A stretch of 14,384 nucleotides of DNA from Aestuariibaculum sp. Lineage in GTDB: Bacteria > Bacteroidota > Bacteroidia > Flavobacteriales > Flavobacteriaceae. Of the stretch, positions 6,097-6,195 are shown piece by piece. Numbering within the stretch: position 1 is the first letter of the stretch; each line of letters begins with the position of its first letter. The stretch lies in assembly GCA_047975295.1 (NCBI GenBank), contig JBKEDH010000167.1, forward strand, positions 1 to 14,384, given 5' to 3'. The notes under the pieces were generated by a model, which was not told the origin of the DNA, ran no database searches, and was given only the letters and a program-made list of their open reading frames with translations. The position numbers and the translations under genes are program-made.

Positions 6097-6166
6097 GTAG
6101 GTTCGAATCCTACTCATGCAAAAACGTGATGGCGAAATTGGTAAACGCACTGTAACTGGGTTACAG
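6097..6166 (+). ncRNA. Second permuted tRNA-like module with class-II (Leu/Ser-type) D-arm
   Basis: T-arm GTAGG-TTCGAAT-CCTAC (6097-6113) abuts hairpin TCATG-CAAAAA-CGTGA (6114-6129; 5 bp including one GU). Then come TG (positions 8/9), D-arm GCG-AAATTGGTAAA-CGC (6132-6148), A, and hairpin CTGTAAC-TGG-GTTACAG (6150-6166). Confidence 0.55.
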
Positions 6167-6172
6167 CTTGAA

Positions 6173-6195
6173 ATGGACTCAAAATCCATATTTTT
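6173..6195 (+). terminator. Weak hairpin plus T-tract (candidate intrinsic terminator; alternatively a Leu(CAA)-like anticodon arm)
   Basis: ATGGA (6173-6177) / TCCAT (6185-6189) with 7-nt loop CTCAAAA, followed by A and TTTTT (6191-6195). Only 5 bp, so termination capacity is uncertain. Confidence 0.3.

Follow-up and report, generated by a model that had tools for sequence, protein, structure and literature searches.

The slipin-rtcB locus of Aestuariibaculum sp.

The locus analysed here comes from a metagenome-assembled genome of Aestuariibaculum sp., a member of the Flavobacteriaceae (assembly GCA_047975295.1, contig JBKEDH010000167.1, positions 1 to 14,384), and we refer to this whole stretch of 14,384 nucleotides (nt) as the window. 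Its gene order is WYL regulator, tRNA, tRNA-like RNA, slipin and RtcB (Table 1), and a 640-nt non-coding stretch separates the tRNA-Pro-like gene from slipin. The subject of this work is an element within that stretch, at positions 6091-6171: a domain resembling tRNA-Leu(UAG) that shows a circular permutation through the loop of the variable arm and has its acceptor closed by a loop. A first-pass annotation, made from the DNA letters alone, had drawn a permuted tRNA-like module at 6097-6195, composed of a T-arm, a loop-closed acceptor, a class-II D-arm and two anticodon-like hairpins, and all of these elements are present on the plus strand where it had placed them. NCBIfam and PADLOC, run on the window, returned the names WYL, slipin and RtcB and nothing further, and the AlphaFold2 model of the slipin, with a pLDDT of 50, was unusable.

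Comparative evidence for a permuted and closed tRNA-Leu-like fold

We compared 80 orthologous loci from different Flavobacteriaceae species, fetched with the slipin protein. In nearly all of them two or three T-loops occur, 60-110 nt apart and 430-700 nt upstream of slipin, and the T-loop sequence GTTCRANTC is invariant in the orthologue alignments. An alignment of 15 Leu-type loci had 97.9% of its cells paired, as against 78.5% when shuffled and 25-44% with slid partners; both bases had changed in 16 of the 25 pairs, and each of the five helices was supported. With the closing helix included, a 22-locus alignment had 94.8% of its cells paired and both-side changes in 19 of 25 pairs. The D-stem was close to invariant in both alignments, with one covarying pair. 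Compensatory changes thus occur in every helix, which upholds the earlier view that the design reflects selection rather than decay. Likewise, the hairpin at 6114-6129 and the D-arm, for which a covariance check over orthologous loci had been proposed, are both conserved in relatives.

The strand that follows the T-arm pairs with the strand that precedes U8 of the same module, with five of five inner pairs formed in 131 of 162 modules, whereas conventional in-order acceptor pairing is at chance (mean 1.81 of 5; complete in 2 of 77). The permuted, closed-acceptor reading is therefore correct, and the second permuted tRNA-like module proposed in the first-pass annotation is borne out by this pairing, by the covariation of the helices and, as described below, by that of the 15:48 pair and by the closest sequence relatives. 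The closed acceptor has 5 base pairs (bp) in the window and 5-8 bp among relatives. Its loop varies in the latter (GAAA, TAAC, AAAG, GTA; for example TATCC-GAAA-GGATA), so the A-rich loop once taken for a shared design is not one. Since the covariance model that we call R1 also matches ordinary tandem-tRNA junctions, its matches are no census of modules, and modules were classified by explicit closure tests.

The domain begins at 6091 and not, as first drawn, at 6097, because TCAA (6091-6094) pairs with TTGA (6168-6171). This closing helix, which the first-pass annotation missed along with the resemblance to the YrlA family, changes sequence from lineage to lineage (TTCAA/TTGAA, TTGTTTC/GAAACAG, ATCGTT/AACGAT, ATTGTTT/AAACAAT, AATTCA/TGAATT). 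Matched flanks form 4.52 Watson-Crick bp on average, compared with 2.60 for flanks permuted among loci, and none of 20,000 permutations (0/20000) reached the observed value. In the 22-locus alignment, all five of its pairs (columns 8-12/89-93) change on both sides and 82.6% of cells are paired despite six out-of-register sequences. The helix stands at the position of the long variable arm of a class-II tRNA, and the termini of the domain are a plain helix of 4-8 bp.

Hairpin 1, the anticodon-arm equivalent, has in relatives a 5-bp stem and a 7-nt loop, mostly UUUNGGU (N being A, C, U or G); ACUGGGU in the window is a variant that permits two extra pairs. Of the two drawings offered earlier, the one with the 5-bp stem and 7-nt loop thus holds in relatives, while the 7-bp stem with a 3-nt loop is peculiar to the window. 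Hairpin 1 is missing from three loci (L006, L009 and L012; individual loci and contigs are given by L number).

The Levitt pair 15:48 covaries. In Leu-type modules it is A:U in 25 and G:C in 9, with 2 exceptions, and in the other module types G:C in 89 and A:U in 18, with 5 exceptions. This tertiary covariation argues for a true L-shaped fold. The plus strand is supported by G-U pairs in the plus-strand helices and by the strand-specific T-loop motif. Run on 12 loci, RNAalifold recovered the T-arms and closed acceptors of the two modules, the two hairpins and the stem that closes the first module. It also paired the UGGCG of the D-arm with a downstream block; we rejected this alternative on three grounds: its pairs show no compensation, the window has lost the block, and the Levitt covariation favours the D-arm.

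Among the 471 tRNAs that ARAGORN found over the 80 loci, the tRNA-Leu(UAG) genes of the adjacent arrays are the best matches to 6130-6166 (mean local score 13.6, as against at most 9.2 for other isotypes), in agreement with the likeness to a tRNA-Leu 5' half that had been noted for the D-arm. This clear derivation from an array-type tRNA-Leu(UAG) would also be expected if the element were non-functional debris of tandem tRNA genes, left by deletion or recombination between T-loops in a decaying array. Arrays are being lost in the lineage, with one tRNA left in the window, and module content differs between genera. On the other hand, compensatory changes preserve 95-98% of pairs across genera, the acceptors are closed by varied and often stable tetraloops, the tertiary 15:48 pair covaries and the element keeps a fixed position in nearly all loci. 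We therefore strongly disfavour the debris explanation and regard it as extremely unlikely.

Table 1. Genes and RNA features of the slipin-rtcB locus (positions in the window).
Feature	Position	Strand	Remarks
WYL/WCX-domain regulator, divergent	4588..5598	-	Protein domain annotation
tRNA-Pro(UGG)-like gene	5799..5870	+	Rfam tRNA 51.9 bits; missed by ARAGORN
5' hairpin of the composite RNA, ATTGTT-TATCCAAAA-AACAAT	5992..6012	+	
First tRNA-like domain, YrlA-like	6017..6088	+	Rfam YrlA match; RNAalifold stems covary
First domain, closing stem	6017-6022/6083-6088	+	
First domain, T-arm	6028-6044	+	
First domain, closed acceptor	6045-6062	+	7 bp
First domain, D-arm	6065-6081	+	
Leu-type domain, closing helix, upstream strand TCAA	6091..6094	+	Pairs with 6168-6171; 3' strand of class-II variable-arm stem
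Two unpaired U	6095..6096	+	t6096 is the position-48 equivalent, Levitt partner of A15 (a6137)
T-arm GTAGG/TTCGAAT/CCTAC	6097..6113	+	100% paired, 2 pairs covary
Loop-closed acceptor equivalent TCATG-CAAAAA-CGTGA	6114..6129	+	All 7 alignment pairs change on both sides
U8 G9	6130..6131	+	
Class-II (Leu-type) D-arm GCG-AAATTGGTAAA-CGC	6132..6148	+	3-bp stem, 11-nt loop; A14, A15, G18 G19
A26	6149	+	
Hairpin 1, anticodon-arm equivalent CTGTA-ACTGGGT-TACAG	6150..6166	+	100% paired, 3-4 pairs covary
Closing helix, downstream strand TTGA	6168..6171	+	Pairs with 6091-6094
Hairpin 2 ATGGA-CTCAAAA-TCCAT	6173..6189	+	Anticodon-loop-like CUNAAAA loop, conserved
A, then T5 (6191-6195)	6190..6195	+	Not a conserved feature
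Downstream hairpin, CUUUUUAAAA-type loop (AACC...GGTT), conserved	6203..6224	+	RNAalifold pairs 266-269/284-287, three changing on both sides
Slipin (SPFH/Band-7)	6513..7613	+	No evident membrane hairpin
RtcB-family RNA ligase	7763..9136	+	Protein domain annotation

Neighbouring elements of the composite RNA

Hairpin 2 is a separate conserved element that lies outside the permuted domain. Three of its pairs covary in the 15-locus alignment (ATGGA/TCCAT, AGGCA/TGCCT, AGACA/TGTCT); it also turns up behind modules of the class-I type, and the D-arm immediately precedes it in L009 and L012. The first-pass annotation had noted its anticodon-loop-like loop, but it does not belong to the module, as it follows other module types too. 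A regular-expression count of hairpins with the CUUUUAAAA loop was too strict and was discarded. The stem of the 5' hairpin varies with complementarity kept (GATTATT/AATAATC, GGTTGTT/AATAACC, GCTGTT/AACAGT; judged by eye, with no formal count).

The blocks between 6195 and the start of slipin are conserved and partly covarying. One conserved leader block, at 6395-6450, reads TTGTATTTCCGTAGTTGGAACGATGGTTCTCTTTTGCTTTG and contains a covarying hairpin; two additional leader blocks of relatives are deleted in the window. No conserved U-tract follows hairpin 2, as would be expected of an intrinsic terminator, and a promoter and terminator scan, in itself uninformative, called no terminator at the T-run 6191-6195. 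Because this T-run is unconserved and the conserved blocks continue to the start of slipin, 6195 is not a conserved transcript end, contrary to the hint that it might be one. Small open reading frames on both strands were rejected as chance occurrences, since the variation in loop length is not in multiples of three.

Relationship to known tRNA-like RNAs

YrlA is a bacterial Y RNA, and the tRNA-like domains of such RNAs are encoded in RtcB operons; their hallmark is the order T-arm, loop-closed acceptor, D-arm (PMC4201824, PMC7790460; structure in bioRxiv 10.1101/312249). Several Y RNAs may occupy one locus, such as YrlA/YrlB and Yrn1/Yrn2 (PMC4201824). The domain at 6091-6171 has the same order and the same elbow contacts, including the covarying 15:48, and it is likewise encoded with an RtcB ligase, in a predicted operon, with several such RNAs side by side. 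However, the ends of YrlA leave by an anticodon-stem-like helix into the Ro60-binding stem, whereas those of 6091-6171 exit at the variable-arm position through the closing helix. The latter also has a complete anticodon arm and a D-arm of the class-II Leu type, unlike the GCUCA..GAGC type of YrlA, and its syntenic partner is slipin, with neither a GNCGAAN0-1G motif nor an rsr gene nearby.

No Rfam family matched 6097-6195 at gathering score, nor when 5500-6550 was searched at E<=10. The sole overlapping match is a low-scoring tRNA at 6061-6115 (model positions 6-65), a fusion of the first module's D-arm with the second module's T-arm. The Rfam YrlA model (RF02553) matches the first module at 6005-6107 with 47.1 bits (E 3.5e-9), and its gathering score of 69 was reached neither here nor in 15 orthologous loci. 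We rejected membership of 6091-6171 in YrlA, given the missing Rfam match, Ro60 motif and TROVE protein in the window and the different exit helix. A canonical tRNA gene (RF00005) was also ruled out: ARAGORN called no tRNA in the window, and in-order acceptor pairing is at chance.

The 3' half of the domain lies upstream of its 5' half, as in a permuted tRNA gene. Circularly permuted tRNA genes were reportedly described in Cyanidioschyzon merolae and some archaea by Soma et al. in 2007. Those genes mature by a bulge-helix-bulge cut, ligation into a circle and opening of the 7-bp acceptor by RNase P and RNase Z. Like them, our element has its T-arm and 3' acceptor strand ahead of the 5' acceptor strand, D-arm and anticodon arm; unlike them, it has an acceptor that often measures 5 bp and ends in a tetraloop, and it lacks both a CCA and a spacer. 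We rejected a permuted tRNA gene able to mature, in view of the 5-bp acceptor of the window and many relatives and its often 4-nt loop. The host, a bacterium, is not known to have a splicing endonuclease.

Two further systems share the setting of the element. According to one preprint, Band-7/RtcB loci carry predicted tRNA-like RNAs, YrlA occasionally lies beside Band-7, and the b7a-tRNA of Burroughs and Aravind (2016) strongly resembles authentic tRNA (bioRxiv 10.1101/312249). In the window and the 80 loci a tRNA-like element likewise adjoins Band-7/slipin and RtcB, and a cofactor role in RNA repair is proposed for b7a-tRNA. A Burkholderia element upstream of slipin (L203, 2977-3046) has the normal order, an open acceptor and a tight hairpin in place of the anticodon loop. 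The domain at 6091-6171 differs from b7a-tRNA, as far as the description in that preprint goes, in being permuted, with a closed acceptor and a 7-nt anticodon-like loop; it may be identical with some of the b7a-tRNA examples.

In Anabaena, translational stress induces long tRNA arrays together with rtcB and a slipin (PMC8421152, PMC10272220). Similarly to this trn operon, arrays, rtcB and slipin occur together in relatives of our locus, where the element sits between a 10-18-gene array and slipin-rtcB. The Anabaena array members are conventional and chargeable, whereas 6091-6171 is a rewired, non-chargeable derivative of an array tRNA-Leu(UAG), and the regulator is a WYL protein here as opposed to the ribbon-helix-helix repressor TrcR in Anabaena. 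Considering these comparisons, we conclude that the element is a new structural variant among the known RtcB-linked bacterial tRNA-mimicking RNAs.

Proposed function and its alternatives

The domain keeps the T-arm, D-arm, anticodon arm and elbow contacts of a class-II tRNA-Leu, yet it cannot be aminoacylated, since it has no free CCA end and an acceptor of often just 5 bp. Only 2 nt lie between the first closing stem (ending at 6088) and the second closing helix (starting at 6091), which leaves no room for a promoter between the two domains, and both would consequently belong to one transcript. This transcript would also hold hairpin 2 and the further conserved hairpins, directly upstream of slipin-rtcB, and would be made with the operon under the divergent WYL regulator. 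The RNA would be a stable tRNA look-alike that serves slipin and RtcB as an RNA partner in repair, either by tethering or presenting proteins that recognise tRNA or by vying with genuine tRNAs for the nucleases that attack them. The comparisons establish the structure, the selection on it, its descent from tRNA-Leu and its synteny; we infer co-transcription, stability and each functional step by analogy with YrlA in the Salmonella rsr-yrlBA-rtcBA operon (PMC4201824, PMC7790460) and with the co-induction of arrays, rtcB and slipin in Anabaena (PMC8421152, PMC10272220). We consider it fairly probable that the domain mimics a tRNA without being chargeable and serves the slipin-RtcB repair response as an RNA partner or decoy.

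Several points weigh against this proposal. The copy in the window is weak for the family, with a 5-bp acceptor, a 4-bp closing helix and C instead of U at position 33; its single-sequence minimum-free-energy fold lacks the 3-bp D-stem. (We rejected that fold, in which the hairpins form and the D-loop pairs with the upstream flank, in favour of the comparative model.) The second module has no Rfam match and the first falls under the YrlA gathering score. None of 56 loci has the Ro60-binding motif GNCGAAN0-1G in the 90 nt that precede the first T-arm, and no TROVE (Ro60) domain was found among the nine large open reading frames of the 14 kb window, so that the Y-RNA mechanism is not directly transferable. 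Conservation runs on to the slipin ATG, which fits a cis-acting leader equally well. Finally, expression, ends and binding are all predicted, as is the function itself.

The missing motif and TROVE protein also bear on the idea that the RNA is a genuine Ro60-binding Y RNA, an orthologue of YrlA or YrlB with the Ro60 gene elsewhere in the genome. Such an RNA would account for the YrlA match of the neighbouring domain and for the shared topology of T-arm, closed acceptor and D-arm, and multiple Y RNAs per locus are known (PMC4201824). Nevertheless, neither the window nor the 15 loci yield a score that reaches the Rfam gathering threshold, and the syntenic partner is always slipin, which together make a Ro60 ligand very improbable.

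The unbroken conservation up to slipin invites another explanation, in which the domains form a cis-acting leader or processing signal for RNase P, RNase Z or other enzymes of tRNA processing, with no need for a trans-acting RNA. The effect would be to split the upstream tRNA or tRNAs from the slipin-rtcB mRNA, or to control the stability or translation of that mRNA. The domains lie directly upstream of slipin and on the strand of the tRNA array, the conserved blocks reach the ATG without a gap or a conserved terminator, and the YrlA of M. smegmatis is cut by RNase P in vitro (PMC4201824). However, tight 5-bp acceptors closed by a tetraloop (TATCC-GAAA-GGATA) are poor substrates for RNase P or RNase Z, a full elbow, a Levitt pair and an anticodon arm exceed what a cleavage signal needs, and in Salmonella processing releases the Y RNAs of the operon as stable molecules. 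We consider a leader of this kind rather unlikely.

The anticodon-like loops of hairpins 1 and 2 could instead be targets in their own right, mimicking those of tRNA-cleaving toxins. As a decoy they would soak up such anticodon nucleases, and as a tripwire they would yield fragments ending in 2',3'-cyclic phosphate, a signal on which the WYL regulator would switch on the array tRNAs and RtcB. The geometry of an anticodon arm is kept (5 bp, 7-nt loop) and position 35 is free (UAG, UCG, UUG, UGG), although relaxed constraint explains this loop variation equally well. Sister modules carry the loops CUCAUAA, CUUUUAA and CUGUUAA. A role as competitive inhibitor has been suggested for YrlA (PMC7790460) and one as sponge for array tRNAs (PMC8421152), and tRNA fragments activate RtcR (PMC7790460, PMC10159003). 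By contrast, an induced nuclease did not cleave YrlA in Salmonella (PMC7790460), any cognate nuclease would be hypothetical, and three loci (those named above) do without hairpin 1. We judge the decoy or tripwire distinctly unlikely.

A broader proposal gives the tRNA-like domains an active rather than a passive part in a circuit coupled to RtcB. In one version, invading or stress-induced anticodon nucleases would cut the loops, and the 2',3'-cyclic-phosphate fragments would switch the WYL regulator, inducing array and RtcB. In the other, RNase P and RtcB would convert class-I modules with ACC(A) loops into two-piece or re-ligated tRNAs, which, if true, would be a bacterial counterpart of permuted-tRNA maturation. 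Taking both versions jointly, we find this circuit quite improbable.

Irrespective of its function, the locus bears on two questions, namely the roles of the tRNA-like domains of bacterial Y RNAs and the substrates of bacterial RtcB. A regulator, backup tRNA genes, a two-domain mimic, slipin and RtcB come together in one compact and widely conserved locus of culturable marine flavobacteria, so that the connection of tRNA mimicry with RNA repair can be tested directly. Furthermore, tRNA mimics can arise by permuting a class-II tRNA through its variable arm, a layout that current covariance models miss and that tRNA finders may misread, as illustrated by the low-scoring Rfam tRNA matches and the tRNA-Phe and tRNA-Arg calls of ARAGORN in relatives.

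Module types and wider occurrence

Three module types occur in differing combinations across loci. Type A is YrlA-like and enclosed by an anticodon-stem-like helix, type L is the Leu-type domain as at 6091-6171, and type M has a class-I D-arm and an anticodon arm with a CUCAUAA, CUUUUAA or CUGUUAA loop; the closed-acceptor loop of type M often starts with ACC(A). A crude classification gave 27 A-M loci, 17 A-L loci (the architecture of the window) and 7 L-M loci, the rest being A-L-M and others. About 37 of the 79 loci that are informative have type L. Type M modules with a 7-bp acceptor and a loop starting ACC or ACCA lie at 3468-3510 in L018, 3456-3500 in L017, 3557-3600 in L074 and 3443-3490 in L023; the example CAAAGCC-ACCATTTTA-GGCTTTG resembles a tRNA 3' end encoded inside the loop.

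In an uncultured Tenacibaculum (L067, 3463-3554), the 5' acceptor strand of the Leu-type module has a second possible partner, in normal order, in the strand after a third T-arm. This alternative pairing accounts for the class-II 'tRNA-Phe(GAA)' that ARAGORN calls there, and the structure may be bistable. An analogous 'tRNA-Arg(UCG)' call at 3587-3682 in the 80-locus run has the sequence of the L066 Leu-type module; the locus name was not kept in parsing.

Phage contigs of IMG/VR contain a T-arm, a closed acceptor of 7-9 bp and a class-II D-arm (TGGCGRAAYTGGTA), in L092 (at about 10596), L093 (7575), L122 (236), L132, L170, L174, L183 and L192, and many tRNA genes share the contig in L092, L170 and L192. 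None of the phage contigs tested reached the Rfam YrlA threshold. On a Citrobacter plasmid (L201, about 3308-3345), a T-arm and closed hairpin stand upstream of slipin, with a divergent rtcR followed by slipin and a nucleotidyltransferase. In Burkholderia (L203, 2920-3046), an acceptor/T minihelix ending in ACC precedes an in-order tRNA-like gene with a hairpin replacing the anticodon loop.

Upstream tRNA genes and putative regulatory sites

The tRNA-Pro-like gene, the single tRNA left in the window, takes the place of the large tRNA arrays of relatives. Its D-arm is degenerate; an ARAGORN-callable tRNA-Pro(UGG) has a similar position in L001 and L026 and lies farther upstream in L008. Many relatives carry an array of 10-18 tRNA genes (L017 666-2183, L030 763-2042, L045 1036-2296, L067 218-2168, L023, L025 and others) that covers nearly all anticodons and lies directly upstream of the tRNA-mimic RNA and slipin-rtcB, on their strand. 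The tRNA-Leu genes of the arrays are just 74-75 nt long, with a class-II-type D-arm and a short variable loop (L030 1503-1576 and 1580-1654; L045 1760-1911; L062 3001-3145). Odd members include a tRNA-Tyr(AUA), one with a UUA 'stop' anticodon and, in L018, one with an undetermined anticodon.

A palindrome, AACTACGCAAAAACATTGCGTAATT, lies at 5658-5682 in the spacer that separates the tRNA from the WYL gene and may be the operator of that regulator; a similar ACTACGCA...TGCGTAGT recurs at its place in L020, L025 and L060. Just upstream of the tRNA-like gene, at 5743-5772, a perfect 10-bp inverted repeat, GCTCCACCAG-(10 nt)-CTGGTGGAGC, is followed by no T-run. Between the tRNA and the tRNA-mimic RNA, the block at 5890-5990 is almost invariant (ATCAAGCAAGTCYTGTTGNGTGTTTCGGTATAGCACTATTGTATAAA ... 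CAACTTGACTTGAAGG); it encloses a small hairpin (5940-5959) whose stem varies among loci with complementarity kept, and GTATA repeats spaced along it are reminiscent of the direct-repeat operators in the tRNA-array regulon of Anabaena. The Flavo-1 RNA motif (RF01705) is absent from the window; in several relatives it occurs above gathering score on the minus strand of the slipin-rtcB spacer (L001 5130-5201, L002 5132-5208, L005 5137-5208, L013 5132-5285).

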